A stretch of DNA of 64,000 nt from Candidatus Gottesmanbacteria bacterium (lineage in GTDB: Bacteria; Patescibacteriota; Microgenomatia; UBA10105; UBA927): the NCBI GenBank assembly GCA_030679255.1, contig JAUXTO010000018.1, forward strand, positions 2,973 through 66,972. Reading direction: 5' to 3'. A model generated the notes under the pieces. That model was given only the letters and a program-made list of their open reading frames with translations, was not told the DNA's origin and did not search any database. Below, in pieces: positions 3,172 through 63,700 of this stretch (its first letter is position 1; each line of letters opens with the position of its first letter). The position numbers were made by a program, and so were the translations under genes.

Positions 3172-3182
3172 GGGAAATACTT

Positions 3183-3223
3183 CATGAGTCTTATGAGACA
3201 CATTACTCTCATGAGCTCCATGT
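3183..3223. repeat. Palindromic motif cluster 4, upstream (on the reverse strand) of tRNA-Ala(CGC).
   Basis: CATGAGTCTTATGAGACACATTACTCTCATGAGCTCCATG. Confidence 0.5.
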
Positions 3224-3244
3224 GTCAAATGGAAAAAGTGGATT

Positions 3245-3463: not shown

Positions 3464-3762
3464 ACTCACTCTAGTTTTCTCTCTTTTTTGCTCCTTGTCA
3501 AGGGGGCAAACTCGTCCTTGACACACCCTTTTCGCGCGCGTCATTATGTATATATAATAACTTTTTTCGCTAGCGGTTTTCGTTGGGTTTGAAACAGTTG
3601 GTGAAAAAAGATTGCATGCCCGGATCACTACCCAGGAATTTTTTTCATTTCAAGCATACAAATAAAAAATTAAAATCCCACGCATTTCTCCGTTTACCCA
3701 TCGTTGATGCATTTCTTTCTCTATTGATATCGTTATTGTCTCCCATGAGACACAGGAGACCC
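3464..3762. promoter_or_regulatory. Divergent intergenic control region between the small reverse-strand ORF and the giant gene. It contains an AT-rich tract and TTGACA-like boxes.
   Basis: Direct repeat tcCTTGTCAagg ... CCTTGACAcacc at 3491-3529. AT-rich stretch at 3540-3700. AGGAGA at 3754-3759 is a possible Shine-Dalgarno for ATG 3763 or 3772. Confidence 0.3.
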
Positions 3763-3780
3763 ATGAGTCGCATGAGTCCA
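3743..3780. repeat. Palindromic motif cluster 5, overlapping the giant-gene start codons.
   Basis: CATGAGACACAGGAGACCCATGAGTCGCATGAGTCC. In-frame ATGs at 3745, 3763 and 3772 all lie inside motif copies. Confidence 0.5.
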
Positions 3781-27700: not shown

Positions 27701-30700
27701 TGAAGACGGTCGGACCGTTGGGAACTATAGACCAGCAACAATTGATTTTAACGACAAATATTCAAAGTCAAGAAGGAACAAATGGAATCAGGACATTTGT
27801 ATATCAATATCCATCTGCGAATCATTGGATGATCCAAGAAAAAGATGGAGGTGCTTCGGGAGAAACGGATGTCGATCTCTCCTACGCACGTGTACATTTT
27901 GACGGCGCTCGCTATGTATTCACTAATCCCGATACCGGACGCGTATTATATCTGGATTCGGATGATTGGACGCATTCCTATGATCCTAAAGCGAGTCCGG
28001 ATGCCCGCATAGCTGATGATTATCTGAAAGCGAATTCGCTTGATGAACTGAAAGAAGCGATTCGCAAGCGGGGCCTTCTTTCGTATCAAGCATTTGGAGT
28101 TACTGTAGATGCCGATAAGATGATTGCCATAATCGATGACTATCTCGCAAGTACTCCGGTCGCCGATAGATCAGTGACTTCAGCAAAAGATTTTATATCC
28201 CTAAAGACCTGGAATCATGTTATTTTTGGCCAAGGGATTACCATCCGGCTGGTAGAACTTATGGGCGGGAACGTTGAACCATATTATCGGTATAAAAGAA
28301 AGCCCGCTGTAGTTGCCTCTCCCTTAAGCCCGGAACAGATTCGTGCGCGCCTCCTTTGGGAGAGAAGCGTCCTGGGAGAAAATAGCGTCAATAAACAAAT
28401 TCTTGTCGACCGCATTCAAGCCATTTATGCTCCGCTTCTTACTGTTGTTCCGGAGGAGTATAAAGGCGATGTTGAGAAGCAACTTCAGGAATTGATCGCT
28501 GCAATCTACCAGGATCAGGAGGCAGAGATTCTTGCCCGTTTTTCTACAGGCCTTGCATCCGAAATAGTGGATCTGTCCGATCTTCTTATAGATGGTATCC
28601 GGGAACGCATGGACGTGCTTCTGCCGCTTCTTTCTGCTTATCTTGAGACTTCGCGTGCTGATGTGTCTCAAGAGTCCGGAGGTGCTCAAAAAGCTCATAT
28701 CGTGGAACTTTTCCAAAATATCTTCCGGCTCGCAACCCAAAAAGAACTCGTCATTTCCCCGGCACTCCTGGACATCGAAACGCTTGCGCTCGTGGGACTT
28801 TCCCCGGAGAGTACGCCGGAGACCTTGAAAGCATTTCCGGCATTTCGCCGGTTTGTCGATGCATACCGGGACAGTGAGGGAGACGTGAGCCGTGCGGAAT
28901 TGAGGCTTCTTTTTCACTTCCTCCGTAGTTTTGCAGATCATCAAGGGGTCATGGCGACGGTAGTGTCTCAGATGCAGCGCATTGTAGGTGCGACCCCGGG
29001 GCTTCAGGGGCAGTTTTTTAAGGGCTTACGTCTTGGGCTCACCGGTGTATCGTCGGACATATTGGGAGCCGTGGTAAACGGGCAACCGATATCAACAATA
29101 GGAAGTGCCCATAGCTTCATCGCATTTTTGATCAATGACGCAGAACTCGTTCGTCAGTTGACCGACGAAGAAATGCAAAAAAAAGATTATAAAGGAGAGG
29201 ACGTACGTTTTCCATCAGGAGATATAGCTATTTCGCAAATGATGCAGTTAGAAGATAGTCGTCCCACTGGTGTCGATGGGGAGCATGTCATGAGTGTTGA
29301 GTATTTCTTATCCCATTTGGCCGAATTTGATGCCACGAGTCCAAATGGAATACCGGTTAATTCTGACGCGGAGACATCGCTTGTTCAGGACATCAACGTC
29401 CAGCGTGAGCCGAATGCTCATACGGGTGAGATAGCGGCAAATACTCGGGATGATACGAAGGGGACAGAAGGGAAGTTGGTTGTCGATCACTACGTACAGA
29501 CGCGTAATGGCCGTAAAGAATCTGTAGAAGAAGCCAGTGACAACGGTCACGGTGCGCTCGAAGAGCTTGCCCTGGTGCTTGCGAAATCTACCAAAGCGAA
29601 AGGTGGCCAGATAGATCTTACCGGATTTTTCGGGACAGGCAAGTACACCATATTTCAGGATGTCGATCGGGTGGAAATTATTTCTAATAATGGTACTCGG
29701 GCGTTCATGTTTACCTTTACCGTCAAAAAGGATGCGTCAGGAAAAGTAGTGTCTATTCGGCTTTCGGGTGTACGAAAGATTACCGATCCGTCGCTATCCA
29801 AAGGTGTCATCGTCAGAAGGATCAAATTTGCAGATACGACCATTCCGGAGCTTGATCATCTCATGGCGATCCAATCGTGGAAAATGTTTGCCGGCCTGTC
29901 TCAGTACAAAGATTCGACAGGCAGTTTTACCATTTACCTCGTGGGTCAGGATGGAGTTGCGCGTCCACTCGAGGTTAAGCATGAAATACTCGCAGAATCG
30001 GTCATGAAGGGCATCGATCCGATCACTCGTCAGGCCAAAGAGTATGGTGCCATTCGGATTATTGCAGTTGATGATGCGGATATGCCCAGGCAGATAGTCG
30101 AAGGCGCGGCATTTCGTGTGTCCGAAATTCCGGAGAGATTTCTGGAGCTTATTCCCCCCAATTACCGCCGGTATATAGAAGATTTACACCTGACGATACA
30201 GATTCCGTTGGCGCTTATTCGTAACAGAAGTGCTTTTGAGCATGAAACGGAGTTTCTCCCACTCATCCAGAAGCATGTCGCTGCGACATTCTTCAAAGCG
30301 CTTGCCTATAAAACACTGACGCAGAAGTCTCCGCAGTTTTCTTTTGAAGGATTACCGCACGATTGGGAGACGAGTGATAACTACGATCGGGAGTTTGAGA
30401 ATATCGATCCGGCGATCATCGAGGTTGCAAACCAGATAAATGCAGGAACAATTTCAGATATTTCTACGAAAGCATTGCTCTCGTTACTGCAAAACAGTGG
30501 TGAACGGGACTTGGCAAAAAAGTTAGTGAAGCTGATTATTCTCTTGAAGGTTTCCGTTGATAGGACCAATCCTTCGTTGACCATGAGCCTCTTTGAGCGC
30601 CGTATGGCAGTTATGGCCGAGACACGCGCAGATGCCGCACGCGCACAAGCGGAATCATTGCGTCGTCTTGGAGTGGCGGTAGATATGGGAAGCAATCATT

Positions 30701-33700
30701 TGAGTGCTATAGCAGAGCGCGATGCAGATGCGTTTGCGAGACGTGTGGGCGAGGCGAAATCTGTAGCACTTGGTCATAAAAACATGGAACATCCGTGGGA
30801 TTATGCGGTGGAGCCGCAAACGCCGGAAGAGATCCGTGTCATGGTATTGGCGTTAGAGGCAGGCCGGAGGTTCGGGATAGAAGATGTTGTTCTCATCGAA
30901 GGCATGAATGCCTTGGGGGCATTTAAGCTTGATCCAAAAACAGGGAAACGGACATTTTATTTGGATCGTTCTGCCGGATTTACACTTGGGAAGACGTACG
31001 GTGTGAAGGTAGACAAGGGGACTGATGGAATTGGTCATGAACTGACGCATTTTACAGAAGAACTTCGTGATAATGATGACCTATGGGTGCGTGGTTTTTT
31101 TGCAGATGTATCAGGATTTACCCATGACGCAGTGGGCACATTTGCCGATACGTTTAAGTATGTCATGGCGGTATGGCTTTTTGATGAGACAGGTAGCAGC
31201 AAGGGATTCTTTGACGTGATGCAGCCGGTTATCCGGGACATGCTTGCAGGTGTTGCCAACGGGCAAAATCCGAATAGTGCCGTGTTGACCGGCACCATCA
31301 AGGAAATGTTGACCGAGCAAAAGATTGTCTATACTCAAGAAGATCTTGATTGGATAAAGGCTCATCTTGAGTCTCTTGCGGTCAGAGCTATACGCGACCG
31401 CGAGAGTCAGGTGGTAAAGAAATCACTTGAGGAGCTTCAAACCGCGATTGCCGGAGGGGATGTGGCTCATGCTGTTAGGGCGTTGCAAACGTTGAGTGTC
31501 AGTTCATGGCGGGTGTACGCCGGGGATATACGGACCGTATTGGCAGGCATTGAAACAATTCAGGATCGGAATCGTCTTAGAGATATCGGCGTTGCCATAC
31601 ACCCACTGTTAGATGCGTGGAACGCATTTGATGAATTGCAATTAGCGGTTGCAAAAGCCAGGAGACATTTTTCCCAGCCTGCCACTTCTGACCCTCTCTC
31701 CCAGGATCTCCAGGCCATCATTGATGTGCAAAAAGTTATCAGTGCGGTGTTGGATGCAAATCAGCCGAAAAATGCATTGAATGACCAGCTGAATGCGTTT
31801 GACCAGAAGATTACCGGAATACATGATTCCATGCTGGCTCAGCGTACAAAAAATTCAGATTTGACTGATCCGGAATATCGCCGGTTGAGCGACGCGCTTG
31901 AAGCAGCACGAAAAGAGCGCAATACACTCACCGATCAATGGATGGCATTGCCGGATGTTGCACTAACACCAGAACAAACGACCCAAATAGCCCATGCGTT
32001 CGCGTCGCTTACTCATGAGCATTTCACAGATAGTGAGGTCGAGATTATTTTTAATTCAGACAACTATATATCGTCTCATGGGTTGAGAAGAATCCAAAAT
32101 ATTTTGGATGATGAATTATTCCGTCTAGCACAGTCACCCAAACCTGCTCCTGACTATCTTCCCTTCGCCGGGGCCATCCACGCGGCGTTGCCAGTGCAGT
32201 TAAGAACCGCTATTACCCAAAAATCCATCGAATCCCTCCTGCCCGGAATATTCCCGCTGGGCGCCGCAGCGGATCATATTGCCGCCGCACTTCGACAGTG
32301 GCAAGGAGGCCTCGTCCCACAACGCATCGGGTCGTTTCTCACTCTGCTTGGAGATGCGGGCAGCGACACCAGAACGATGATTGGTTTGGCTTTGCAGGCG
32401 GCTGTGGAAAATCAAACAGACCCTGCCGGAGCGGTGCAAACGGTATTGAATACCTATCGTTCAGCGCTTCTACTATCATGGGGAGAGCTACCGGAAACCG
32501 TAAAACAATTTAAAGAAGAAAAGAAAGATCTTCTGAATTCTTCCGGCGCCATGCCGTTTGCCGATGTCCTCTACCATCAGCTTCAGAGAGAAACAGGACG
32601 CGAAAGAGTGGCGCTTCAACATGTGTCTGTTGGTTCTGCAGTCTACAAATCGATTATCGATCAAGCTGTGGTGGTGGCAAGTACGACCTATCACACAACT
32701 CCGAGTAAATCTGTCAACACTCAAGCGGCCCTTGTTGACGCGGCTCGAGCAGTATTGGGAATCAGACGCCTATCTAATGGAGCTGTGGAAATCGCATTGG
32801 ATGTTCAAATCACCCGCCAAGACTACAACGCCGTCAATGAAGCCGCTTTCAAAAAAACCGGACTATCTCCACAATTAAAACCAGAGGTTCAGGCCCTCCA
32901 TGATGCACAGGTGGGCGGCAAGATCGCCAAAACGACGGGCGATCTGGTCGCAGATAAATTGAGAGCCAAGTACAACGAACTCGTAAGCCAGAAACAATCC
33001 TCATCGACGAAGCTCGATAACCCACTCTATATGTTCGATCTCCCGCGTCTTGCTGCGTACTGGATGACGAAGACCGAGGGGAAGACGGATAGCACTGCCA
33101 TGACAGATGATGTTCGTAAGTCAATGTTTTTTGCTGTAGGAAATGTCAGGAGTTCACTGCAAGGACTAATCAACAAGGGTTCCACAAATTCATCCGTAAA
33201 GAGTATAGAATCTGATTTCCGTAGAATAATGTTTGACCTATTTCTGGATCAGGATATCGTGATTGAGTTGTTTTTGCGTGAGACAAAGCAGAAATCATTT
33301 CAGGATGCTTTAAATGCAATGCTTGCGGATGCTACTGTGCAAAAAAAGTATTTAGACGTGTTGCAAACCATACTAGAGCGGATTGTACCTCCCGTCAATA
33401 CACTCATTGCTGATGCGCTAAACGTCACTCCTTCGAATGTCCAGCCCGCGGTCTCCACCCGTACAAAACTCGCCGCGGCAATTGAAGCATATGCCAACCA
33501 ACAATCCGGCCTCCCGTACTCGGGCTACAAAGCGTTGGATTCTGTAGAAGTCAACCTCTCCAATTTCCTCAAGTTTTTGGGGGAAAATAAACTTTTTGCT
33601 CCTCCTATTACGCCTCCTCCGGCCGGTGACGTCCTTCCGGAGACGATCGCCATCGTGCCGGATGATTTACTGACGCAACCGTATCAAATACTCTCATTCA

Positions 33701-36700
33701 CCCAGGGGAAGCAGAGCGAGGAGCGGGCGAAGAATCCGCCGCAACCGATTGACGCGGTCATGGCGATCCCTCCCATCGCGGCACCGGTAGTCCCGCCTCC
33801 CGCACCGGGAACAGCACCCGGCCAATCGCCGCTTGGAATTCCGGCCCAACTCCCCGAGTGCGTCACCGGAGATACAAAGCTCAAGAGGAGAAAGAAAGGA
33901 AGAAAGCAAGAGAGGAAGATAGCCGGAGCCGGATCAGATTTAGATGGTGTGGAGAAAAAACAAACCGCCTCTTTCGAAGCGGCTGTTGGTGAAGGAGATA
34001 CAATATCTCCGTCGTCCGATAAGCTTATATATGATACATCGCTTATGCCGGTTATGTCAAGTGGGCGGAAGGCGGGAGACTTGCACTCCATCCCGTCTTA
34101 CGACGGGACCATTCGCTTATCAGACGACGCCCCCTCGTCGGAGGTTCACCTTCCACCTGACGCCAGTATATCACAGGATGAATATGAGGACGTTGCCATC
34201 AAAGACATCCAGGCGGGCGACGAGATCCTGTCTCTGAACGAAGCCACCGGCCAGTTTGTCCCCCAGATTGTGGAAAAACTCATGGATAAGGGCATGCAAC
34301 AAACCTATCTTCTTGTGACATCATACGGAAAGCATATTCGCACGACAGCACAACACCCCTACCTTGTGCGCGATCCGCGGTTTGTAGAGCCGCCCATATT
34401 CCCTGAGCGGATTTTTGGCAGCTTTGAAGTGGATTTATCCGGTCATATTGAGGACACCTCTGTCGATACGTTTGTATCCGTTGCGAACCAATCATTTGCG
34501 CAGACCATACTGATCGAACAAACAGTCAAAAGACTACTCCAAAAGTTATTTAAGAAAAAAAATCACCTGAAGTATCTCGGACCACGCGTATTGGCAGCAG
34601 CGATTATGAGAATTATTCGACAAAGCAACATCGCCGTGACACATTTGACCGTTGATTTGAAATTCCCCGGATATCTGGAGGAAATTTCGCAGATACTACA
34701 TAGATTTGATCCGGACATGATGGTGTATTTCGGATCTATCGGCAAGCATTCACCAGCTCACTATGCCGCTCATGGCGCATTTATTGGGAAACAGCCGATT
34801 ATCGGCTTTTTACAGAAAGAGGATATTTTCGGTAACAAAAAAGACCGCGATTCCCGAAAGAATCTAGGCGCTTTGCAAAGTAAGGACGATCATATCCTAG
34901 GGAAATCGCCTGACCAAGTAAAGAGCGCACGCGGTCAATTTGTCTCCCCAGTATATACGAGAAGTCTCGATCTGTCAAACGGATCTTCGTGGAGAAAAGT
35001 AAAGGATATCAGAGTCAATCTGGAGGTAGCAACGATCGATGGTTGGGAGCGGATCGTGAGCATTGTGCCGATAGCCCGTGAGCATGTATACGATGTTCAA
35101 ATTTCCGGCACCCATAACTTCGTCGGCAACGGCATCGTCGCGCACAACACCTCAATAGAATCGATGCGGGTCCGGGAGTTCCATGCCGATACGGACGGGC
35201 AGGGGACTCAGCACTCAAAGGTTATCGAAGATATGCTCGTCCATATTTTGAATAATCCTGATACGGCAGGAGCGTTCCAGCTCATCCGGTCTGTCCGGTT
35301 GTTTGCAGCCCAGCACGGTATGACGGCGCTTGCAAGCATGGAGGAAACGCGTATCCGCGAGCTCCTCCCCACGATCTTTCGGTTTTTTGCACAGCACCAT
35401 GAAATGGGCAACTTCATGGGGATTGTGGATGGCAAACTCGCCGTATTCAAGCTTCAACATCACCCGGGCGCGGAAGCGCGGGCAAAAGCGATTTGGGATT
35501 TGATGACGGGCAACGATGCGTCTGCCTATCGCGCGAAAGCTCAGGAGTACGGAGCAGGTACTCTTAATGACGACGAGTGGAATCTCATCCGGGGATTAGT
35601 TGGGCAGATGATTATCGAGACGAACGTCGATCAAAACACAGACGGGTATGGGCTTGTCAGCCGCGTCTTTAATTTCAACATCAACGGGCCAGAGATGAAG
35701 GAGGCAGAGGGGTTTCAAAATACCCTTGTTAATTTGTATTCTCTATCCCAACGCCAAGTCCTCGTAACCAATCCGTTTACGAAGAAATTTGACCTCCCCC
35801 AACCATGGCTCCTGAAACGGATGTACGATATTGCCCTCCATTATACCAATTCATCAAATAAATCTTACGAAGAAAGTATCCGTGCGACTGTCGAAGAGGG
35901 ATGGACCCAGACAACTGAAGAAATTGATGCGCTCACCGGTCTTGCCAAGCTCTTTCATCGGGCCCGAAACGGTCTGGGAAACCTTGCTGCCCTCGCCGAT
36001 CAGGAAGTGGGTGCGTACCTACCGGATGGCGCCTATACCAACCCCCGGACCAATATTTCCTGGGCTCTCATGGCCGAGTACATCCGCCGCGACGTGCCCG
36101 TACCGGGCTACAACCCGGCCAAACCGGAAGAGTATTTGGGTTTCATCGACACGATGGCCAATATCGAATTTGGCAAACTCTTCCACAATCTCATGCAGGA
36201 TGCAGGAGGGGAGTTAGCGTGGACCAACCGGACCCCCGCCGCCCAGCTGGCCTTCGCCCGCGCCCGCCAGGCGGAGCTTAAATCCATGGTCGCCGAAGCG
36301 ATGAAACAACAAAGATTGACCGAATTACAACTCGCAGATCTGCCCGGATTTTTAGAGAAACTGCCCGGGAAGTATCCGGACGGCGCTAGACAGAAATTTG
36401 AACAGGCACTTGAAGAGGCGATGAATAGAGTGAATGACCTGCGGTCGGCAGAACAAAAAAATACTGCGAAGACTATCCAGACATTCACTGCTCCTTTTGA
36501 AAAATTGAGTGCTGATCCGGAAGTGTCGGCATATATCATTGGTCTGGATCCGGACTATCTCGCAAGTCTTGTTGCAGAAAAGGGGGCAGTGGATCGTAGG
36601 GACGCGGAAGTGATGGTCGCTGCATTGGAGCTGCTCGCCCAACGGGATCCACCAAAGAACGCACCGCAAGATCCGGTTGTAATGGCCAAAAGAGCGCTCA

Positions 36701-39700
36701 CTACGGTCAGGGGAGTGCAAAATGCGAGAAATCAAGCGATTTGGGCGTGGGACGCGGTTGCGACCCTTACCGAGCTTGTGAAAGAAACGCAACCACCACT
36801 CCAATTTTGGATCTACCTTGCCGATCTGCAGGACATTTTCGACGCTGCGGTAAAAACAGACCAAGAATTACTCCAAGAGACCAAAGTAGCAACCCGTGAA
36901 GTTTCAGAGAGTCTTGCCGATTTAGTTACGATCGATAACGCACGGGACATGACGAAAGCAGTCAGTCAGATCAGCGCAAATCGGGACGCATTGCTTGTGG
37001 CAAATGCAAAATCAACCGGGCTTATTCTTTTGGCTATCGCCCGCGGCGATGAAAAATTCACGATACTCGGGATGATTCATACGGCGCTTACCAAAGGGGT
37101 GAATAAGGCGGTTGTCACCCGATTAGGAATCACGCCGGAGACCCTTGCGGCATACGAAGATGCCGTGTATGTATCCGTATCAGAAACATTAGATGCCTAT
37201 GTTGTTGATAAAACAGATACCCGTCTCGCCCGCCTGAATCCGGCGGCAGGCAAGAAAGTATTTGATAAACCGGCATACGATAAATTAGTCACAAAAGCCC
37301 AAGCGGGAGCAAATATTCAGGAGGCATTAGCCGTAGATGTTTTTCCAAATAATCCTGATCTTCGACCGGCCCTTCTTCGGAGGCCAGAACTTCTTGATGG
37401 AATGGCAAAAGCCATTCTTGCTACAGCAGAGAAGCGAACGGATGACGCACTGAAAGAGCAGAAAAAAGCCGATGAAGATCGCCTCGCCCGCGCGGAAAAA
37501 ATAAAGTTAGCAAATGCCCAAAAGAAGGCGGAGAAAGAAGAAGCCAAACGTCGGAAAGAGCAATTAACGAGGGATCAGAAAGTGGAGCAAGAGCGCCTCG
37601 AGTTGGAACGGATAGCCCGTGAAAAAGCTGCTGAGGAGACGCGGCTTCGCGATGAAGCAGAAGCCCGTCGTAGGGCTGATGAAGATGAGCAGAGGCGGGC
37701 GCAAAAGCAAAGGGACGCAGACGCCCAGCGGCTTGCCCAGCAGGAGCAAACCCGACTTAAAGGATTTATCCAAGCGAGTAAGGCCCGCCGCGCGGTACCG
37801 TTTGCTCCACCGAGCCAGGATCAGATTCGTGACGTCGTCACTCGGTCCTTCGAATTAGGAGTCCTTCCGGCTTTAGCAGCGCGTGATGCGGTCATAGAAA
37901 CTGCACTTCAATTTGGTGAAAAGGAACTGGCTATGCGCATGGGCGTGAACTTTGAGACGTTCCGATTTTTGGCGGAAAAGTATGGACAGCGGGTCATGAG
38001 ACAGTATGCGGAGCAGGGACTGCCGGAGATCGGTCGGGCGATCAATTCCGGCAAAGCAGAAGCGATCAAAGCTGCGCTTGATCAAAACAAGATCACACCA
38101 TTCTATTACACCGATCAAGCAGGCTTACTTGCCCTGTTTAAGGCAAACGGTGAACCGGCACCATCCCCAGAGGTGGTTACCCGCATGATGCAGGGAGACC
38201 TGGGGACGGCGACGAAAAAAGGCATCTACCTTAAAGCTGATATGTTAAGTGGTGAAAACGTAACTGTTCTGTATCAGCGGATCATCGCCGAGGAAGTCAC
38301 GCACTTCATACGGTTGAACGATCCCACTGTCACGATCACCCAAAAGAACGTGGGACGCGAAGAGCTCATCGCCGCCGCCGTCTCCGTGGCGATGCTCAAA
38401 ACCCCGCCGCAGGAGGCCTACCAGCACGCCCAGACGACCACCATCCTGACCCATTTGGTATGGACGACAACGACCCCGGAGCCGGAGAAAGAAAAAGATG
38501 CCGGAGCGGCGAAAAAACCGGCATCCAACCTCCGTCGGCCACTTTCGAAAGAACAATTGGAAGTAAAATTGAAACAACTTGGTTTTGCAGATGGAACGAA
38601 CGATTTAATTAGTAAGCATCAGGCACTTGAGCTATTCCAGAAAAGCGATGTATTCAGAGGATGGACAGTTCGTGACGTCGATGATCACGGTGCCGCATCA
38701 CTCGTCATCTTTGCCAATACACCCGAAGGCGAACCGAGAGCAGTGAAAGTTGCCCTGAGTCCGAATGATGAGGAATCGGCCAAAATATCATTATTTGTAA
38801 ATTCCGGTACCCCTACAGTATATAGTTCTGGGCGTATTCAAAGAGATACGAGTGCCTCTTATTCATATATGGTCATGGAGGAGCTTCCGATTAGTGAGGA
38901 ATACAAACCCGGATCGTATATTTCATACGATAACCTGATCGTATCAGTAGAATATGACAAATTATCTCCAAAAGAAAAACTATCCTTTGCACTTGGTTTT
39001 GTTAAGAAGTATTGGGGTATCATGTTAGCTGCTTCGATCAACCCGCACGTATTCAATGCGGATTTTGCTAAAGGTGACAGTATGTTCTTTTATATTGACG
39101 AACAGGGGAAGGAACCAAGAGATGGGGCGTTCAAGCTTATTGATTATGGAGGAGTAAAAAGTGCAGACCAGAATTTTCTAGATCAGCGTCGAGGTTTGCA
39201 CAAACCCATGCTAGGCAATGCAGACGGACAGTTGAGAGAAATTTTTCCCATTCTGGCTCGTATTGATCCTATGTATTTTATAGGGAGCGACGCGCATATG
39301 TTCACAACAAAATCTCCAATCGGCGAGGAGGTCATACCGTTAGAGAGTCTTCCGCCGGAAATTCAAAAGTTCATCATGTTTATCGCCAGATTTAACGAGG
39401 TTACGCATCCTACATTTGGAAAAATGCTCGGCGATGGACTGTTGCATGGCGTGAATTTTGCTGAGGGTGAGAATAATTGGGACATAGGAGGATTTATGCG
39501 GGAAGTTATACTTCCTGCAGAAAAGTCATTGGCAACTATGGGTGATCTTAAAGGAGAAAAAAATGATGCAGCATATAAAGTAAAGCGAGATGCTCTATTT
39601 CAATCCTTTGCTGACGCTAAAAAGAATTTTTCACCACGTGGTACTTCCTATGAAAAAGCCCAAACAGATGCCGATATTGGTGCGATCGTGGATGTTGTAC

Positions 39701-42700
39701 TGAATGGAAAGTATCATCCTGACGAGCGTCTGCGTGAAGCGCTTGAGAAGCCGGGAGTACGTGAAACGGTTGCAGGATTCCTTCCGGTCCTCCGCATAGT
39801 CCGGCCCGGACTTCGGGATATTATCGATGCACCTAATCAGAGAGAAACAGTGGGCGATACCATCACGACATTTGTTGCCAAGCGTTTGAAGGTTACGGAT
39901 TCGGCACAAGTGGAAGCGATTCGTGTAGCAGTAACCGCTGCGATTCCTCCAGCAATCGCTACTGGATTTGATATCGGCACGCGACTGTCTGGTGATGACG
40001 GAAAGCGAATTGGTACTATTTTGTCTACTGTATGGAAAGATTCCGGGCAGAACGCGTCAAATTTCCTCACCCGTCTCCCCGTCTTTGTTCGGGCCTTGAC
40101 TATTCCTGACCTTTTGGTCGCCCGTAGCTTTATCTCTGACGTGCAAAAAGCCCTCGAAGAACTGGAAAAAGTGACTTCCGGGATGAACGCGACGGGCATT
40201 GACTCTCCAGACGCCTTCCTTACTGCTTCTTCGTACACCGGCACCGACACCCGCTATGCCGGAAAAAACAATCAACAAATCATCGAAGCAATCCTGACTG
40301 CTCATGAAATTTCGACCAACACTGACGGGGTCACCCCACCCGAATACACCTCCCTCATCCAGACTTACGGCACCGTCATCTTCAATATCTTGCAGTCCAG
40401 ACCAATACAGCCCGCCTCAACTCAGCAAAAAATTCAGGCAGTGCTTGATCTGCTATCCACTGCACCAAGCGCGTTGATTGTAAAGGAGGAAGCACCGAAG
40501 GATCAATTACCATCAGTCGTGGGAAATCAAGTCAAACTTCAGGAAAAGGTCATTGAAATAATTCAGGGGAAGAATGTGCGTTTGGCAGAGTTATTGCAAC
40601 AACCAGGATTGGCATTTAGTTTTATGATGTTTAATAATATTCGACTTGAATTACGTCTTGACGCTTCATGGATAGATACACCAGAGAAATATCTCGATGT
40701 TATTTTACGCTACTTGGTGGAGAAAGTGAGTAAAGACATTTACACGCATAAGTTTGAACATGAAAAAAATGAAATAGAAGGATTTAGCAGTCAATATAAT
40801 CAGGAGTATATAAAATATTTGAAATCAGTTCTGCTTGAATATGGATTCATCGAAAAACACATAGATGCATATATAGAAGGATATAAGGCTGATGCAAATG
40901 AGTTATCGAAGATTTACCAAAGTGGTAATACTGGGGGGTTAGAAAAAATATATAGGGTTTTAAATAGTTATTTTAGAGATGATTTTAGAGTTGATGATGC
41001 AAAGAATAAAGTCTATATTGACTTGATTGGCGGGTATCGATCAAATCTGTTAAAAACGATCAACAATGCACTCGCATCGGGTCGAGCTGGTTTACCTACC
41101 GCAGAGAGCATTCAGGCCCAATCGCAGAATCTTGAGAAACAGCGTCGTGAGAATACTGCAGGTGAAACGTTGAAACAACGCGTTTCAGACACCGTTACAC
41201 CCGGAGTATTTTTGGCATATGGATTGGCCGTTCCCGCGTGGCTCGATACTCCTCTTTCCGCGCTTACTCCTCAGGAAATCGGAAATGTTACGAAAGCATT
41301 GGAAGCGCTCAAGGTTCTCGTTGCAGGTGATAATGGGGTGAAGGCCGCCCAAACACTTTCACCGGTCACCATCGCCGACATTACCTCATCCCCCAAACAA
41401 GTAGTAGGTAGCCGCACGTTCCGCATGACCTCACAGGGAGTATTTGAAGAGGTAGCCAACACAGGATTTATGTTTTTTCCCAAGGGAACGGTGATTGCGA
41501 CCGGCACAGAAAACGTAGTGATGATCATCGGAGATCGTGTTGTCGATATCATCGTTGTGCAACGTGACTATCGCGTTTCAACAGATACATATATCGCATT
41601 TCCCAACTATAGAGATGATGAAGGGGCAAGAAATATTTATACATATGCGCTCCGGGGTGGCCAGCATATCGTCACCGGACCGCTTGCCGTCGGCACACTT
41701 ATTTCGCTTACCCAGCCAGTAAAGAAGGCAGCGATCGTTACGGCGAACGATATTGATTTGTATGATGTCGTTACCGTGGCGACGGGAAACACGATACTCA
41801 CACGCGGAGTAAATCCAACCCGCGTCTATATCCATAACGGGTCTTTTCTGCGGGAAATTACGACTCTTGAGGATATTGTATTGCCCGATAGCACGACGCT
41901 TCGCGTCGATCCGCGCCATTTTTCAGTAGGAGCCGTTATCTACAAGGAACGAGTTACCATTGGCGCAGTCGAAGTATTACGTACCACGGATGGACACATT
42001 GCTTTGTCGGTTGGAGCGGACGCGGGAGCTTGGTATTTCCAGTTTGGATCAGCAGGCCAAATGCCCTTGACCGTGATTGTGCCAAGTACATTGCAGAAAG
42101 TTAGTCTCATTGCCGAGCCATGGGATAGGACAAAGAATCAGGATTTTGATATTAATCATACTGCGTCTTCCTTGGCCGACGCGGTAACACCGAGCTATGA
42201 ATATGCGGGTGAACTTTTGGACGGATCGACGCTTCAGTACCGGGTAAAAGGAGATGGTACGAGAGAATGGATATCGGTCGATGCGGCGAACAAGCGTACG
42301 CCGGTTCCGATCGGTACCCTTCTGCAGAATTCATCTGGTGCGCCGCTACTCGTAGAATCCACCGGCACCGTTGTTGTCACGCAATTAGGCGATTTTCCGG
42401 TGTATGTCTCCAAGGATGGAAGACGCGTATGGAGGGAATCTGGTGCGCTCCTCACGCCTGCTTCTTCACCGCTGTTACTCGCTAATGGTCAAATGATATG
42501 GTTTGATGGGCAGGGGAGTATCCGTGTATTTGATGAGTATCTGAAGGTGTCGTTTGCAGGTGCGGGGGATATGCCTCTCCTGTTGGGCAAGGAAGCCACG
42601 ACCGGCACGCTCTATTGGGTAGGAGAGGCAGACGCGAGAGAGCAGCCCACCGGATCTGAATTTTCGGTTAATGATGTTCGGTTTCGGGTATCGCCCGGTC

Positions 42701-45700
42701 AAACGGTAGCGAGCCAACTTGTTGTGGTAGGGCTTACCGACACCAATGGGTTGTGGAATACCCTTCGATCGGATATGGATTTCCTCATCGGGTTTTATCA
42801 AAGCGTGGATTGGGCGGCGGTGGCAGAGGGGCAAGATGGATTGAGGAATAAAGACCAATTAATCGTTGATGTGAGGGAAAGAGCAAAAAAAGCCGTGAGA
42901 AGATTGCTCGTAGGAGTCGCAACGGACGTGACCGTCTTCGGGCCGGCATTTGATGCGTATATAGAAGAGACGATTATCCCGGCAGTGCGCACAAATATCC
43001 GGGCGATTGGTCAGCCGACTGTAGTGAAGGGAGCGCTTGAGATTGAACAAAATTTTGCCGTTTGGCGGGCGACCCATGAGATGGTCGATGCGTTTGTGCG
43101 TAGTCCGGCTCTGGCAAAAAAGAAGGGAGTGGTTGCCGTAGCCGGCCGTATCGCTGGGCTGCGTGCCGGGACTCAAGGCTCTGACACGGTTCCGATCGTG
43201 CGTGATGCACTTTGGACTGCCCTTCAAAATCAGGAATTGACGCTGCCGGTTGCCTACGGAAAGAAAAAGATCATCACGCTGCGATCTGCGATAGAAAGTA
43301 TGTACCTAAATGGGACGAGAGCGGGCTTTGCAGCCGAAAAAGCTCGGCTCATCGATGCGGCATGGATGGCGATTGATAACGCAGGCGCTTGGGAAGAATT
43401 TTTGGAGAGGGTGGGAGGGGTAAGTGTTACCATGCGTTCATGGTTTGGAGGATTAACGTATAGCGCGCAGGAAACCGCACTCTATGAACGTCTTGAAGTT
43501 GCCCTTCGGGATATTGGCACAGACAAAGACGCGAAAGCCGCAGCAGAAGCGGAGGCGAAACTTCGTAGTGATACGATCCAAGCACAATCGTTTGCCCAAG
43601 TTGCTGCGGATGGAATCATCGGTGAAGCATCGGGTTTGTATGGGATTGATATGTTTCGGGATGAAGTGACACGCTTGATCCGATCTCAAATCAGCACTAT
43701 GGCAGACGGCATCCGCAAGCAAAACAAAGAGCGTACAGAGGCCGTTGAGCGCATTGGAATGCGTCTTGGTAAAGCATTGTTCGATCAAGTGGCTAGCGTG
43801 AACATTGTCGGGATGCTTGAATTGGATCTAACGGCTACTCCAGCCAGAATCGAATCTAACATGTTACAGGGAAATTATACGGTGGAAGCGCAAGATTCGA
43901 TGTCTATCTGGAGAAACTATCTACCTGATCCATTGATGACGCTCTTTGATGATGCTATGAAGGATACTACATTGACTGCACTTACTCCGATTGAGCAGCA
44001 ATCCTATATAGATGACGTTCGCCGTGTAGCGGCACAAGAAGCACTGCGATTGTGGACTGCGCGGGAGGATGATGGTGGAATTTTATCCGTGATGACTCCA
44101 GAGGAGCGGCAGGCAGTGGTTGGGCTTGGGGTTAAAGCAATTGGATCAGAAAGAAGAATGGATTGGCTCATGGATGGAAGCGGGATATCATTACTTCCAG
44201 AGACGCGCAAGGCTCTCATACAGAAAGTATTTACTGATACGGATAAATTTATTGAAAACCAGCGGTTTACTGCGGCGCTTGCAGATGTTCAGCGCTTTTT
44301 TCCATCTCTTTCTTTAATATATGAAACGAGAAATAGATTTAATGCAAAATTATTTGAAGGTAATCTGGCATGGAGTTTAGCGGAGGCTGATACATTACAC
44401 GCGTTATTTGATGACGGCAAAGCATGGGAACAGACGAAAGCCGCATTACAGAAAACAGGAAGCTTGCGGGATCATATTTATCATAATTTTATCCTTCTTC
44501 ATTCAATTCCCCGGTATGCAGATCGGCTTCCGGATTTGTCGGTTCGGTTTTTTCGAGACGGATTGCCAAGCAGGATGCTTGAAGAGATATTTACACCGCA
44601 CAGTCTTTTTTGGAAATCTGAGTCCGTACAGTCCGCTATGAACTCGATCTTTTCAAAAAAACAAACCGATCAGGAATATATAGCGCAAATCTATATATTT
44701 CTCACGCGTATGTTTGGGAAGTTGATCGATACGAGTAATCTTAGTGGCACATATCACATATCCAATGATCAGTATCTCAGCTTTGTCCAAGTCGTGTCAG
44801 AGATTGTGTATGAAACGCATAAGGATTGGGTTGTCGTAGCGGATAATCCACCTAAGGTAGTCTCAAAAGAAGGGAAGACACTATCAATACTTGATATGTT
44901 TGCTAAACAAGTTGGTGTCCGTCAAGAAATAGCGGGTGTATACCAAAGAGTAAGGAGCGAATTTTTGAGCAGTGAATCATCAATGAGGTCCGTTGCCGCA
45001 GCCGCACTCAACATAACGACGGATGCTTCAAACAATAGTGCTAATGTTATTACCGCCAACCGAAGGCTCATGAAAGTAATTCATCCTGATACCACTGGTG
45101 TAACAGATGAATATATCAGCACAATTATGTCGTATATCGAACAGGTTAAAAAATACCTTGAAATCATCAACGATACTGTTATGTCGAAAGACAATATTGA
45201 TGCAGCATCATTTGTTTTTGCTCTCATTACCGATAAATTCATCTATAAGGAATCTATTTATGGGTTTAGTACTGGTGAGCAAATGAAACCCAGAAAAACT
45301 ACATATACTTTTCGTGAAAAGGAGTATTTGCTATATTCTCGTAAAATGCTGGGAAATGAGTTACAAGAATTTATACAATTTGTAATTAAGGACACAGCAT
45401 TAGATGAGCGTGCTATGGTTGTCAACCAAGCTGTTGCAACGGGTTCATATCAAGATGTACGGGATCAGATGGAGCAAGTATTTTTGAAATATGTCAGAAG
45501 TGCCGATGTGAACATGAGGGAGTGGGATAGCGATTGGTGGGAGTTGCAGATGTGGAATACCTATCGCCAAATCAGGCTCGCCCAAGGTTTAGAGCCGAGT
45601 GTGAAAAACGATGGAAGTGATTCTCCTTCGCGTCCGAGTGGTCCTTTATTCCTTCCTGCGCCCAGTATTCAAGATCTTGTGACACACATCGTTGTGCGGA

Positions 45701-57700: not shown

Positions 57701-60700
57701 CTGGTAAATCTGAAAGGGATTATTTTGATGCCCCTGCAGTGAAGCCATATATAAATACAGTGGTAAATAATATGGCAATTGGGGATATAACCCAAGTCGA
57801 CCCACTCACATTTCGTTTGCTTGCAGCGTTGACCACCGATATGGTTTTCCTGCGACAACAAACCGCCAGCGTTCCATTTACCACACTTGGATTACCTGCA
57901 AAACCTCCCGTCGCATTTGTTCCGATCGGACAGCCACCTGCAGATTCTCAGAAAGCGCCAGCGTTGACGCCTAATCAGCCGGTGTCTACGCAGGTATCTC
58001 TCGGGTCATTTACACCTACTGCTGATCAATTATTGAGTACAATTCCTATTCCTCCGGAGTTGCCTACGCTTGTGGCACAAGCAAGTTCATTATTGGATCA
58101 AGCACAAGAAGACCTCAACCAGGGGAAGAGAGATGTGTTTGAACAACATGTAGCGCAAGCCCATGGACAAATCGCAGACCTCATGAAGCACTGGCCGACT
58201 GACGACGACGTGCAACGAGTCATAGCCCAACACAACTTATTGACGGCTCAGATACGTGGTAAAGGTATTCAGATGATCGTATCCACAAATGAATCAAAAT
58301 CAAATCAGATTATCACTGCATTTCGGTGGGACGGGAAAAAAGTCGAGATTTATCTTTCCAACGAACAAGGAGACGAACAATTTCCTGCTTTAGGAATCCA
58401 AGAAACCTCCACTGCCGATACCGCTCAGGAATATGATCAACGAATTACTGAATATCTGTCAAATCGGGGAAAACAGGCATTTTACGCGAGAAAAATATCG
58501 AGGGTATTAGATGGCATTGAGGATATCGTAAAACCACAAAATGCTCATACCCCTAAGGACGTAGGATCCGCTGGCCTCGGCGGGGGAGGAGAGGGAGAAA
58601 ATAAATTACTCAATTTGCTCAATTCCGGAAACGTCAGGATGAAATTCCCTTTTTCGTATCATTTCAGTACTGGTTTTTCACTGGCGAGCAGGATGTATGG
58701 TATCAATCCTACTGATGGAAGTGACGTCAATAAGGCAAAACTTAAACAACTCTTCGGATCTACGAGAAATATCATGGATCCAGTATCACTTAATATGGTG
58801 AATGATGTGGTTGCGGTTCGGGTTTCGGTTATTGATGGTTCATATGTGATGATTGAACAAAATTATGCGGAGTTATTTGCGATGGCCGTTTATTATGGAC
58901 TGACGCCTGAAGAAATTTATGTCTATGATCGCGGGACAGGGAATTACATGAGCTTGAATGATCTTTTATCAGTTGTTCCGCAAAGAACAGAAACAAAAAG
59001 CCGCTATGATGTTTTATTCACCGACATGGAGAAAGATGAAAAGACCAGCCGTGGGTACGCTGATTATTCAGATATTTTTCCTGACCAAAACCCACAAGGT
59101 CTATCCCTTGAGACAGTTCTTATGGATCTTCTAGAAAAGAAAGCACTGTCTGGTGACCACACGCTTACGATTCTCGACCAGGGGGCCGGGGTAGGAAATT
59201 TTGGCCGTGTCCTCGCTGCTTTGTTTGAAAACCCAAATAGGAGTGATAAGGAAATGAAGCAATATTTCGGTAATAAGAAATTTCTTGCCGTATGGAGACC
59301 TGAGCGCATGGAAGAAGCTCGGCGTATTGCCCGGCGAGCGAGGGACCTTGGCATCGCATTGCGGTACGTGGGTATTACGGATGCCAATCGTACGCAAAAT
59401 CTTTTTGATAGAAACTGGACGATTGGGGCGCCTGGAAAGAGTGTCTTTGCGGAAAATATTGCGTATACCTATACGCCGAGACAACGGCTTAAACAGGTGC
59501 TCGATACTTTGGGTATTACTTCTATAGATTTTGCATTTAGCGTTGCATTTGAATCGTATTTAGATGAAACAACGCACACAGCCCTTACTCAGGATATTAT
59601 TGGAGCATTGGGGCAGGATGGCATCTACGTTGGAGAGACGGCAAAGCTGCAATTGATGCTTCAAAATTTTGAGCGGAAAGGAATTGTTACGTTGCTTGAT
59701 GCAGCCCAACAGGTTTCTTACGGGGTAACATATAGCAGTTTAAGGAGTATATTTTCCGTCAGACGCACTAAACAAAGTGATCGTAAACAATTCACGACAG
59801 CCGGAGAACGGGTGGTACAAGCGGAACTTCGGTCAAATCCTCAAATTAATGCAGATCAGCTTGCTCAGCACGCAATTGATGCGCTGGCAGAAGCTAAAGC
59901 TCATTCGGATTTATTGCAATCCGTTTCTCCCGCCGGCGGGGGAGGAGAGAGACCGATGGATACGTCCAATTTAGCCAGTAGAAAAATAGTCGAAGCCGAG
60001 GCGGTCAGACTTATTGAAACATCCAATAAAAATGCAGCAAGTACGCTCATGGCCCAGTATGAGCGGTTGGTTGCGGGACTCGTAAACGTACTGGAACAAA
60101 ATCCTAATCTTTCGTTAGATTCATACCTTGATATGGTGGCGACCAACGATAACGTACGGGAGCTTCTGGGGATCAGCCCGACTGGAGATCGGAGTCCTCC
60201 AACTCCTTTTCAATCGTCCCTTCGTACTTCTCTCGCCTCCGACCTCCCGTCCCTCCATACCCAGGCCGCACAGCCAAATGCCACCAAAAAACCCGCTTTC
60301 GCGGGTTTTGGCGATCTCGCCAGGTTGGTAAAAAAGCTGGACCTAAGAAGTAATGTACTTATATCATTTTATGAACGTTTTGTCACTCCCAGCTCCCAAC
60401 CTGGCAGGCCCACTCCATTGGTGAGTATACCACAGCAAATTCACGCTGTTTTATCAGATTTTGTGGCTAAATTTCTGCCTAAAAAGAATGTTTTGCAACC
60501 TGTCCCCGGCGGCACCGGCGGCGGGGGAGACGGAGGAGCGGCAGTGATGCCCGGGGAGTCCGGATTGACGCCTCTTGAATTGAAAGCCAAACAACTGACC
60601 GAACCGGCAGCAGCGGCCATTGGAGAAGCGCTCGTGAAGCCTCTTGAGAAAAAAGTTAATGATCTTTGCAATGATCGTACGGGATTTATACCGGGTGGAC

Positions 60701-63700
60701 AGCAGAAATTGGCTGACGGGTCAGGATTTGCTTTCCCTCTTGGGGGGAGAGGTGCGAAAAATCAGGAGAGCAAACAGCAACACAGCAATAATGAGGAGCA
60801 TGTACGCGGACGCAGCGTCACCCAAAAATTTACTGAATTGGTCGATAGTCATAGCTTTTTACCCCTTTCGATGAACCATACGGCAACGAATAACGATACT
60901 ATACCAAACGGGAGATGGAGAAACAAGAGCGACCGAAATTTTTCTGATGATGTCGCTATAAATCCCGGACTGATGACTAACATGCCAATCCATCCGGATG
61001 ATAGATTGATAAATAATGCTCCAAACGCTTCTGCAAATGATTTTCGGGATATGGCAAACATCACCCCCGACTCTACCACTCAGCCAACTGCATTGTCAAC
61101 CAATTTTTCCTTTACGCCAAAAGTCTATGCAGACAACGGCTTTGCTCCATCCGGCGGTCCCAGCGCCCGCTGTGCTGTAGCCCGGGCGGCCGCAGAAGTT
61201 GCCCGTGGAGCAGCTGATTTTGTCAAAAACACGAGTTGGCAGATGCCCAACCGCGTATTGACTCAATGGTTTCTCGGGAGTATTCGGAGAGTGGGAGATC
61301 AAGCATATGATATATTTCGCAATGCATCCCAACGGTATGATATTGATTACAACACGTTACTCGGTAAAGGTGGAATAGCGAAAGTTTATAAAGGATTTGA
61401 CCGTTGGAGAAATGTTCCGGTCGCAATAAAAGTATTACCCCGCGGTTCGGATGATCAAGATCTAGGACGTGAAGCACGAATATTAGCTCAATTCTCTGAT
61501 TATAATGTACTCCAAGTATATGATCTGCATGCATTTCCTGATGGCACTGTTGGATTGGTGACGGAATTAGCGGATGAACATAAAACATTAGGTTCGATCA
61601 TTCAACCTGGATACGCTATTAGTTCAGACACCATGGCTGATGTGCTTGCACAGATCGGGTCTGCGATCGATCACATTCATGCTTTTGGAGTTTTTCATCG
61701 TGATATTAAACCGAAGAACATCCTGATCCAGGATCTCGGCAACGGTCTCATAAGGCCGATGTTAAGCGATTTGGGTTCAGCGGTTCTTTCCAGGCCATTA
61801 TCGACGGGACTAGTTGACGATTCAGGGTATGGAAACAGCGCACAGACCTTGATATATATGGCCCCTGAATTAGTGTTAGCGCAGGATCAACCTGCGACTA
61901 TACAAACAGATATATATTCCTACGCAGTCACGTTGTATGAAATATTAGGTGGTTTGCATCCATATTTTCCCGATCCGGATGCAGAATATCCAGTGCTTTA
62001 TTTAAGGTTTAGTTCAATTGATAGTAGTAAATACATTCCATTATCATCGATACGATGGGCAAATACCCAAATTATCGATCCGGAAGTAGTGAAAACAGTG
62101 AATCAATTGCTTCAAACGGCCTTATCAGTCGATCCTGCGCTGCGTCCGAAGTCTGCAAGCGAGCTGACCAAAAATATTATTGAAGCCATTACCAGTCATT
62201 CATACGTGTCCAAGTATCATCCAATCACCAACAGACAATTAAAAAATGTCATTCCGGATGATTCCGTCGCTCCCTCCATCGATCTCGCCAAGGCCAAGGC
62301 TGGGGGAGGGGTGAACGATACGGTGGGTACGATAACCCACGATCCTTCTCGACCTCAATGGCTCGAAGCGTTACAAAAGAGAATAACCTCATTGTTTAAT
62401 CGCATGGCGATCCAATTTGGATGGTATCGCGGTCCGGAAGCACCAATTGTCCGATTTGCACGGGAGTATGGAGATTTATTGGATCAATTATTAACTGATA
62501 CAGATGTTCGAGAGGCGATTGTGCATGATCAGCAACCATACAAAGCCATGCGGCTGGTAAATAGAAAGATACAAGATATCGTAGGGTCTAGATATGCAGA
62601 CGCTGACAGACTCAAGATTGTCGAATTTATTATAAATAAATTTGACTTTATCTGGCATGTCGGTAGGGCAACGGAGGATATACAAAGAGGTCAATATGAA
62701 TCATACCGCAAGGGTAGCCGGGGACAAAGAAAATACACTTTGAATCCTAGATATTTGTCGGTATATCAAACGGAAATCATTGAAGGATCTGTACGTCCAA
62801 AAACAGTTGAATTACCTACGGCACAAATAGAGGAGTTTGTGCAAAGGGGTCGCCAAGTCGCAGGCGCAATGGTCATACCAGCAGGGAAAATCAATCATGT
62901 CGGTGAACTTGTGGCTGGCTTAGCAGCAACTCTTGAGGATGCTGATACGCCGATAGGACGAGATCAGCGGTTGTTGATTCATCTATTGACCTTTGCGGAT
63001 CAAACAAACCCGGTTAGTGGTGGTAGCGATTTTAAAAAGGCGCTACGTACATTTTCCGAAAGCCAAATGAATCCAGAATATATTCCTGAATTGTTTTCTA
63101 GACTTCTCGCGATAAATTTTGCACGATATATGCTCTATGAGCCGTTTTGGGGTCCTGTATTGGATGTTTACAATACCAAGGTGCTCCCCATTATTCATGC
63201 TCAGGGCGCTGAGTATCAGCGGTTTCATGCGGTAACGCCGGAAAGCATTATCTGGACAGAAGGAGAGATGCCGATTGGCTGCGTTGGGCAGTGTCTCGTG
63301 CCGACGGCCATGAAAGATTTATACAGATCATTCATGGTGATTAACACAATTGGGGAAACTGGTAACTCTGTGTTTGATGTTCGTACGACTTTGAATGGAA
63401 AAAATATTACTGGAGTGCGTGACGGTTCTGTTGCATCAAAACCGAGAAATGCAGCTTTGGCGACGTTAAAGCATGAAGCTATCCATGCGCAGAAGATTGA
63501 TGAAATTGGGAGTGCAAATATCCCAACAGATACACAACTTATTGGTACCCTTGAAGGGTTGACTGAGACAGAACAGTTACGATTGACTGACATTGTTTTT
63601 GCTACTTCCCCTGATCTTTATGGTCAGTTTGAACGACCTGCCGCATATCCAGGCGAACGAATAATAAATAGAGTATTTTTTGATCTTTTAGAAGTGCCGA

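Follow-up and report, generated by a model that had tools for sequence, protein, structure and literature searches.

What could a protein kinase domain be doing more than 19,000 residues into a single bacterial polypeptide? This question arose from a 64,000-nucleotide stretch of contig JAUXTO010000018.1, called the window below, which belongs to a metagenome-assembled genome (MAG) of Candidatus Gottesmanbacteria, an ultra-small groundwater bacterium that belongs to the CPR (Candidate Phyla Radiation, also called Patescibacteria). Near its 3' end the window encodes a real and complete Hanks-type Ser/Thr protein kinase domain. This domain has no gene of its own; it is a module, at about residues 19,260-19,529, of one protein of more than 20,000 residues. 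It is a divergent further member of a very large and well-known kinase family, and what is unusual about it is its setting. We consider it reasonably likely that it is a competent kinase module of a membrane-anchored giant protein, most likely paired with an FHA domain in cis.

The kinase domain and its catalytic residues

A first-pass annotation had placed a Hanks-type kinase domain at 61336-62175 on the forward strand, had quoted its subdomain strings and had proposed a Pfam Pkinase search as a check. Translation of this interval gave 280 codons with 0 stops, and all the quoted strings were found in it, namely LGKGGIAKVYKG, VAIK, HRDIKPKNILI, DLG, APE and DPALRP. The Pkinase profile (PF00069) matched strongly (127.9 bits, E=6e-37, cut-off 31.7), and its positions 4-255 of 263 covered 61351..62160 (+), corresponding to residues 19260-19529; residue numbers here are codon positions within the stop-free frame 3574-63999. 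A phmmer search of the PDB sequences returned 1281 kinase chains, with ULK2 (6e-18) and PknE of Mycobacterium tuberculosis (2e-17) at the top. In these alignments VAIK, GREARIL, HRDIKPKN, DLG and YMAPE of the window lie on the matching motifs of PknE and ULK2, with DLG opposite DFG of PknE. An AlphaFold2 model built from the kinase alignment described below had a mean predicted local distance difference test (pLDDT) score of 80, rising above 90 in the core. Only the N-terminal linker, the central part of the activation loop (query residues 195-199) and the C-terminal tail were modelled with low confidence, and the low values in the middle of the activation segment are expected of a flexible activation loop. 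When this model was compared with the PDB by Foldseek, PknB (1o6y, 1mru), CaMKII and ULK1 were matched with probability 1.00 and a target-normalised template modelling score of about 0.8. The profile, the PDB sequence matches, the alignment and the structural model agree on a Hanks-type kinase near the window end, as the first-pass annotation had proposed.

We aligned the domain with its 42 nearest database kinases. Columns invariant in all 43 sequences were G19266, V19271, A19284, K19286, E19300, H19375-R-D19377, K19379 and N19382, together with D19399, G19401, Y19428, P19431, E19432, D19446 and R19524. The window kinase satisfies every invariant column, and the set is exactly the Hanks catalytic set. 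The Gly-rich loop, G19264-K-G-G-I-A19269 (61363..61380, +), is a GxGxxG loop with Ala as the third Gly, as in ULK2. It is followed by the catalytic Lys of VAIK, Lys19286 (61429..61431, +; alignment column K64), and by its partner in the alpha-C helix, Glu19300 (61471-61473, +; column E78). The catalytic loop HRDIKPKN at residues 19375-19382 (61696..61719, +) has the form HRDxKxxN, with D19377, K19379 and N19382 in place. The activation segment runs from D19399-L-G19401 to A-P-E19432 (61768..61869, +) and contains S19410, T19411, S19417 and S19422, with T19425 in the P+1 loop. An HRDxKxxN catalytic loop and a P+1-loop Thr are Ser/Thr-specific signatures of the kinase family. The C-lobe anchors are also in place as invariant columns: E19432 of APE, D19446 of subdomain IX and R19524 of subdomain XI.

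The nearest database kinases are multi-domain kinases of Acidobacteriota and Myxococcota type, and identity to them does not exceed about 36%. The window kinase resembles PknB, PknE and PknA of M. tuberculosis, PrkC of Bacillus subtilis and StkP of Streptococcus pneumoniae in its fold, its catalytic motifs, its HRDxKxxN loop and its long activation loop with Ser and Thr. PknB-type kinases were among its best sequence and structure matches, with identities of about 24-31%. However, PknB-type proteins have 600-700 residues and begin with the kinase, which is followed by a transmembrane (TM) helix and PASTA or other sensors, whereas the window kinase lies at about residue 19,260 with no PASTA repeats and no TM helix after it. 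PASTA repeats gave no Pfam match, and a hydropathy scan found no hydrophobic segment after residue 17,333. The kinase also falls outside the named subfamilies: the PknB_PASTA_kin model (NCBIfam NF033483) scored 117.3 bits against a cut-off of 450 and matched by its kinase portion only. In NCBIfam and PADLOC scans for anti-phage kinase families, MADS Mad6 scored 92.6 against 460 and BREX PglW 41.2 against 990. A defence kinase (MADS Mad6, PD-T4-6, BREX PglW or Stk2) was rejected, as these matches covered only the generic kinase core, no genes of such systems lie in the window and the kinase is internal to the giant open reading frame (ORF).

The only near-invariant kinase residue that the window does not match is the Phe of DFG. 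The replacement of DFG by DLG, which the first-pass annotation had pointed out, is real in the sequence: Leu19400 is encoded by TTG (61771-61773, +), one base from Phe. Among 123 catalytic domains of the 119 nearest database kinases, 111 had DFG, 8 had DLG (6.5%), 3 had DMG and 1 had DAG. Human RIPK1, which is an active kinase, has a Mg-binding DLG motif (PMC6525537). Like RIPK1 and a minority of bacterial eukaryotic-like Ser/Thr kinases, the window kinase has Asp-Leu-Gly at the Mg-binding position with the other catalytic residues intact. There is no specific sequence relationship to RIPK1, and the common Leu would be convergent or a minor variant. Judged by these comparisons, DLG is an unremarkable, tolerated variant and gives no sign of inactivity. 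Pseudokinases usually lack at least one of the VAIK Lys, the HRD Asp and the DFG Asp. Because all three are kept in the window domain, the kinase is probably catalytically competent.

The giant frame and the adapter ahead of the kinase

A six-frame scan showed a single stop-free frame at 3574-63999, 20,142 codons long, which leaves the window at its 3' end. The giant ORF probably starts at ATG 3763 and has at least 20,079 codons in the window (3763..63999, +). An independent Logan assembly contig, SRR13727518_11618 (36 kb), agrees with window 1-12358 at every base, and its gene was called from the ATG matching window 3763 as a 10,457-residue fragment ended by the contig end. This contig end appears to lie close to the C-terminus of the first of two inteins in the frame, described below. 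A stand-alone kinase made from an internal start was rejected, since no in-frame start preceded by a Shine-Dalgarno sequence lies just upstream of the kinase.

In a second Gottesmanbacteria MAG (GCA_016218205.1, JACREO010000013.1, locus L006), a protein with a MerR-type helix-turn-helix (HTH), an M23 peptidase and a giant gene occur in the same order as in the window. That giant gene encodes at least 20,250 residues and is also ended by the contig end. The first 2,846 residues of this ortholog are 61% identical to window residues 379-2938 over 2,632 residues (BLASTP). A comparison of the N-terminal 2,795 residues of the window with the L006 gene had given only short high-scoring segments, and the idea of a hypervariable locus that this had raised was dropped after the BLASTP result. 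The more distant GCA_040960095.1 has a complete protein of 5,270 residues at the syntenic position, and FHA is its only recorded Pfam domain. Residues 3445-4219 of the window frame, which include a helicase-like ATPase described below, form the only region common to the syntenic proteins of GCA_040960095.1 and GCA_040960765.1 (at least 4,451 residues), with 24% identity. The single frame, the identity of the Logan contig, the ortholog of similar size and the synteny together indicate that the giant gene is real and conserved in this CPR lineage. No loci related to window 61000-63999 were found in the genome or metagenome contig collections by a search with 8-mer peptide patterns, which an ortholog of about 60% identity would escape.

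The kinase is immediately preceded by a sequence that occurs three times in the frame, here called module A. The first-pass annotation had described the sequence before the kinase as the third copy of an adapter, and self-BLAST bore this out: there are three related copies, and the last ends at the kinase start. Copy 1 (residues 16206-16454; 52189..52935, +) is followed by the FHA domain. Copy 2 (residues 17629-17948; 56458..57417, +) lies between a Fic/Doc-like segment and a sequence repeated in the frame, domain X. The Fic/Doc-like segment (55960..56256, +) carries the degenerate motif HPVSNFNGRLGH at residues 17543-17554 and scored 18.8 bits with Pfam Fic, below the cut-off of 24. Copy 3 covers about residues 18990-19260 (60541..61353, +), of which self-BLAST alone gave 19063-19260. 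Copies 1 and 2 were delimited by self-BLAST and alignments, and copy 3 by these and an AlphaFold2 model. Domain X occurs at residues 18001-18098 and 18802-18899 (57574-57867 and 59977-60270, both +), with 34% identity between the two and without a family match.

Copy 3 consists of a helix up to Cys19032, some 160 residues of disordered loop and a second helix from Cys19200, and it runs on directly into the kinase. Its AlphaFold2 model was mostly disordered (pLDDT 55.6) with two confident helices at about residues 19000-19033 and 19196-19223, and each of these adjoins one of the two Cys residues that are present in every copy. The Cys pairs of the three copies are 16213/16424, 17636/17922 and 19032/19200. 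The loop carries conserved linear motifs, TIPNG, PN[HQ]P-x-x-RL-x-NN and NFSL-P-KA[FY]A-ADG, which in copy 3 read TIPNG, P-x-HP-DDRLINN and STNFSFTPKVYA-DNG. The shape of the last motif, A-x-A before A-D, resembles a processing site and may serve as a lead.

When the last 1,142 residues of the window were searched against the database, the top match fell in module A and not in the kinase. It is 53% identical to P0001, a C-terminal fragment of 1,775 residues from another Gottesmanbacteria MAG, which itself has three copies of module A. The P0001 copy closest to window copy 3 precedes a TM-rich domain, and its other copies precede other domains. The different domains that follow module A in the window and in P0001 suggest that the cargo after the adapter may vary between proteins; this comparison is one with fragments of relatives. 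Domain X is also present twice in P0001, where it adjoins module A. Only 50 members of the module A family turned up among 1.84 billion representative proteins in an index-free profile search. Back-translation of a closer alignment gave three genome loci, in Gottesmanbacteria, in a 'Patescibacteria group' MAG and on a short contig binned as Gammaproteobacteria, and none in the JGI metagenomes. Module A is a rare, CPR-only adapter. The central 100 residues or so of module A (...HxxLLLS...N-x-TIPNG...PG...PN[HQ]P-x-x-RL-x-NN...) also occur within inteins of other CPR giant-protein fragments (P0144, P0146, P0149 and P0162), placed between the splicing blocks at the usual site of the homing endonuclease. 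Two further ideas about module A were discarded. One was a translated structured RNA, as Rfam gave 0 matches anywhere in the giant ORF; the other was kinship between the window Fic-like segment and a Fic gene beside the module A gene in locus L005, which proved unrelated.

A possible kinase-FHA switch and rival explanations

The FHA domain lies at residues 16539-16607 (53188..53394, +; Pfam FHA E=2e-14). It keeps the canonical phospho-Thr-binding residues G16542-R16543, S16557-R-N-H16560 and N16579-G-S16581, as read from the sequence, and its nearest PDB sequences are GarA and OdhI, FHA proteins that serve mycobacterial and corynebacterial Ser/Thr kinases as substrates and readers. Pairs of a Ser/Thr protein kinase (STPK) and an FHA protein are well established in bacteria, for example PknB and PknG with GarA and OdhI, and PpkA with Fha1 of type VI secretion. 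As in these pairs, a Hanks kinase is encoded in the window together with an FHA domain whose phospho-Thr-binding residues are intact, and kinase-FHA fusion proteins are among the database matches of the kinase (P0020, P0057). Unlike these pairs, the two window domains are 2,650 residues apart with modules between them, and no PP2C phosphatase was detected in the window; we infer both the kinase-FHA coupling and the cellular compartment. FHA as the only Pfam domain of the syntenic 5,270-residue relative suggests that this protein family has long included a reader of phospho-Thr. Signalling in cis between the kinase and the FHA domain is ranked first because STPK-FHA pairs are well established and because FHA is kept in this smaller relative. 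An intact FHA domain in the giant frame lends some support to the idea of the first-pass annotation that the kinase may phosphorylate other parts of its own protein.

The proposed mechanism would be as follows. The Gly-rich loop, Lys19286 and Glu19300 would position ATP, Asp19399 of DLG and Asn19382 would bind Mg2+, and the catalytic base would be Asp19377. Autophosphorylation would take place in the 33-residue activation segment, in which S19410, T19411, S19417 and S19422 are candidate sites. The kinase would next act on Thr residues of the giant protein or of partner proteins, and these residues, once phosphorylated, would be ligands for FHA. The FHA domain upstream on the same polypeptide would be the most likely reader of these marks, and the two domains would form a built-in STPK-FHA switch over the assembly or activity of the giant protein.

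Several observations weigh against this proposal. The kinase and the FHA domain are connected only by being on the same polypeptide, at the distance given above and with other modules between. The third Gly of the G-loop is Ala, DFG is DLG, and activity is a prediction from sequence. Neither the kinase catalytic loop nor the FHA motif was found in any of the 50 module A family proteins, which leaves the arrangement of module A followed by a kinase without comparative support. The region past about window 35,100, kinase included, had no matching independent assembly in the searched collections. Finally, the membrane topology is awkward. A crude hydropathy scan of the giant frame gave only three TM candidates, at residues 76-94 (the predicted N-terminal membrane anchor), 5308-5339 and 15219-15237 (49228-49284, +), and the last precedes an LCP (LytR-CpsA-Psr) domain by about 165 residues (Pfam; residues 15403-15578; 49780-50307, +). 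LCP domains are normally extracytoplasmic, and ATP is absent outside the cell. If the topology of residues 15219-15237 holds and no later helix exists, the FHA domain, the Fic-like segment and the kinase would all be placed outside the cell and could act only once inside another one, which would favour an effector role. The hydrophobic segment and LCP domain inside the giant frame mimic the layout of a stand-alone LCP enzyme.

Such an effector role would make the C-terminal part an extracytoplasmic array in which FHA, Fic-like, kinase and other modules are separated by module A, with the kinase acting on host or target-cell proteins, as the first-pass annotation had also considered. It is a tentative reading that we find rather doubtful. 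The three copies of module A flank differing cargo, the best-matching module A of P0001 (53%) leads into a TM-rich domain and no kinase, and the TM candidate followed by LCP suggests that the downstream part is outside the membrane. As modelled, module A, with its helix, disordered loop with linear motifs and second helix, could be a docking or cleavage site, and in a conjectural variant proteolytic release would occur between NFSL-P-KA[FY]A and ADG. Kinase and Fic are classic activities of injected effectors (YpkA, LegK, VopS), GNAT is another such activity, and CPR bacteria are episymbionts. The GNAT acetyltransferase domain of the frame (Pfam; residues 14264-14356; 46363-46641, +) lies upstream of the TM candidate at 15219-15237 and is thus outside the proposed array. 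However, no domain for secretion, translocation or autoprocessing (CPD, RTX, Rhs or a PT-HINT releaser) came up when all 20,142 residues were scanned with Pfam. The HINT matches were two canonical inteins only, with PT-HINT below threshold (20.1 against 27.7) and overlapping an intein from Cys1 to the HN and T of the downstream junction. The prediction for residues 15219-15237 is itself weak (Kyte-Doolittle 1.85), and the same simple topology model would place a helicase-like ATPase of the frame on the wrong side. Besides, FHA with a Hanks kinase is far commoner as a cytoplasmic signalling pair, cleavage at module A is purely conjectural, and the word 'polyprotein' of the first-pass annotation is unproven. 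The effector idea leans on a weak topology argument and on analogy. Its boldest form, in which module A marks processing or recombination junctions and the kinase, with FHA, Fic-like and other modules, is released singly, delivered to the host of the episymbiont and rewires Ser/Thr phosphorylation there, seems to us unlikely; if true, bacterial polyproteins or effector arrays would gain a new type of organisation.

The two remaining explanations concern the kinase itself and the assembly. A kinase fold without phosphotransfer, serving the giant protein as a binding module or scaffold, would fit DLG in place of DFG, GxGxxA in place of GxGxxG and the strong divergence from every database kinase. 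We regard it as quite improbable, as the VAIK Lys, HRD Asp, DFG Asp, Glu19300, Asn19382, APE, Asp19446 and Arg19524 are all kept, DLG occurs in active kinases and in the neighbouring domains counted above, and GxGxxA is common to the active ULK2. An artefact, either a mis-assembly that joined the kinase to the frame or a sequencing error that made DLG, could be imagined from the missing independent assembly past about 35,100 and from the single base that separates TTG from a Phe codon. Yet a chimeric join seldom keeps a single frame for 20,142 codons, copies 1 and 2 of module A, further upstream in the frame, are homologs of copy 3 beside the kinase, the related MAG has an ortholog of similar size, and GC content is unremarkable across the junction. 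This makes an artefact very improbable. Of the readings considered, a probably competent kinase with an FHA partner in cis is the best supported.

Other modules, flanking genes and comparison with giant proteins

Most of the giant frame has no detectable family in Pfam scans. Among the parts that could be assigned is an SF2 (superfamily 2) helicase-like ATPase at residues 3474-3616 (13993-14406, +; ResIII 24.5 bits, DEAD 21.7 bits). This region recalls the divergent SecA-DEAD domains of Omnitrophota giant proteins; the SecA family itself had no match in the giant frame. Two class-1 inteins with TxxH and HN blocks interrupt the frame, the first from C10096 to N10526 (33859-35151, +) and the second from C14426 to N14770 (46849-47883, +), each followed by T. 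Both run from CVTGDT(K/I)LKRR... to ...GIVAHN before this T, and their mutual identity is 38-49%. Block A is followed in each by a basic-loop insertion, and a central insert of some 200 residues, without a family match, occupies the expected endonuclease site. About 70 residues separate the GNAT domain from the second intein, which lies downstream of it. A repeated sequence, domain Y, is present at residues 12149-12281 and 14079-14209 (40018-40416 and 45808-46200, both +) with 43% identity and no family match, and a weak GDSL-lipase-like match follows LCP at about residues 15769-15873.

Downstream of the kinase, 613 residues in the same frame (62161..63999, +) are ended by the window end. They gave no Pfam match even at E<=1 and no non-kinase homolog in the database search, and their sequence includes HEAIH at 63472-63486. 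Motifs of the HExxH type lie at residues 9155 (HELTH, 31036-31050), 16971 (HEMLH, 54484-54498) and 19967 (HEAIH), all on the + strand. The last two lie about 430-520 residues downstream of FHA and the kinase, respectively, and the terminal cargo of P0001 has HELAH. No metallopeptidase family matched the HExxH regions. Cys is rare in the giant frame (51 of 20,142 residues), and 36 of these are in the first 2,206 residues, mostly as close pairs resembling disulfides. Past residue 2,206, Cys is found at 6825/6828, as the Cys1 of each intein, twice in each copy of module A and as the pairs 17070/17074 and 19903/19907.

Upstream of the giant gene, the window begins with a MerR-type HTH protein cut by the window start (3-848, -), whose counterpart also stands before the M23 peptidase and the giant gene in L006. 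The fragment P0144, which has the module A centre in an intein, begins with two fused MerR HTH domains. Next comes an M23/LysM peptidase (1279-2355). It is 100% identical to a protein of a Candidatus Gottesmanbacteria MAG at NCBI, and its next relatives, at 80-88%, are all from Gottesmanbacteria or Patescibacteria. Two tRNA-Ala genes with GGC and CGC anticodons lie on opposite strands between the peptidase and the giant gene (2432-2504, +, and 3097-3171, -). They flank an ORF of 204 residues (2520-3134, -) that overlaps the second tRNA, ends in an HETHGAHETH repeat and has no Pfam match.

The closest precedents for a frame of this size are giant proteins that West-Roberts et al. (bioRxiv 10.1101/2023.11.21.568195) describe from Omnitrophota ('Archaeovorins', with up to 85,804 residues) and Actinobacteriota. 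The domains listed there for these giants include GGDEF, Ser/Thr phosphatases, CheY and NUDIX, and cleavage of giant bacterial proteins is raised as a question (bioRxiv 10.1101/2023.11.21.568195). By term search of the same preprint, 'kinase' refers only to domains of pyruvate phosphate dikinase and histidine-kinase-like ATPase type, and 'Candidate Phyla Radiation' is found only in the introduction and a reference; neither a Hanks kinase nor FHA is mentioned in the passages covered (bioRxiv 10.1101/2023.11.21.568195). As far as these passages describe the giants, the window protein is like them in being a single ORF of tens of kilobases from an ultra-small bacterium, mostly unannotated, with scattered signalling and enzyme domains and a divergent helicase-like ATPase. 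It differs from them, within the same limits, in its CPR genome, in having about three TM candidates where they have many, and in its two inteins, module A, Hanks kinase and FHA domain.

Two other systems offer analogies. Rather as in MARTX and polymorphic toxins, relatives may have non-homologous cargo after a conserved adapter, to judge from their fragments, and the kinase and Fic-like modules would be of effector type; unlike in those toxins, no CPD autoprotease, RTX, Rhs/YD repeats or VENN/DPxGL-type motifs were found in the frame. In titin, twitchin and obscurin, a Ser/Thr kinase is embedded in a giant structural protein close to its C-terminal end, and CaMK-type kinases are among the best structural matches of the window kinase. 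The likeness to titin-type kinases is an architectural analogy only, with no Ig/Fn3 repeats, an unrelated origin and no evidence of mechanosensing.

CPR bacteria are a group with small genomes. In this Gottesmanbacteria member, a protein of more than 20,000 residues, encoded by a gene of at least 60 kb, offers few landmarks that can be interpreted functionally, and the kinase is one of them. Together with the FHA domain in cis, it would provide a tractable handle on how such a giant protein is regulated, and on whether it works as a single chain or as cut pieces.

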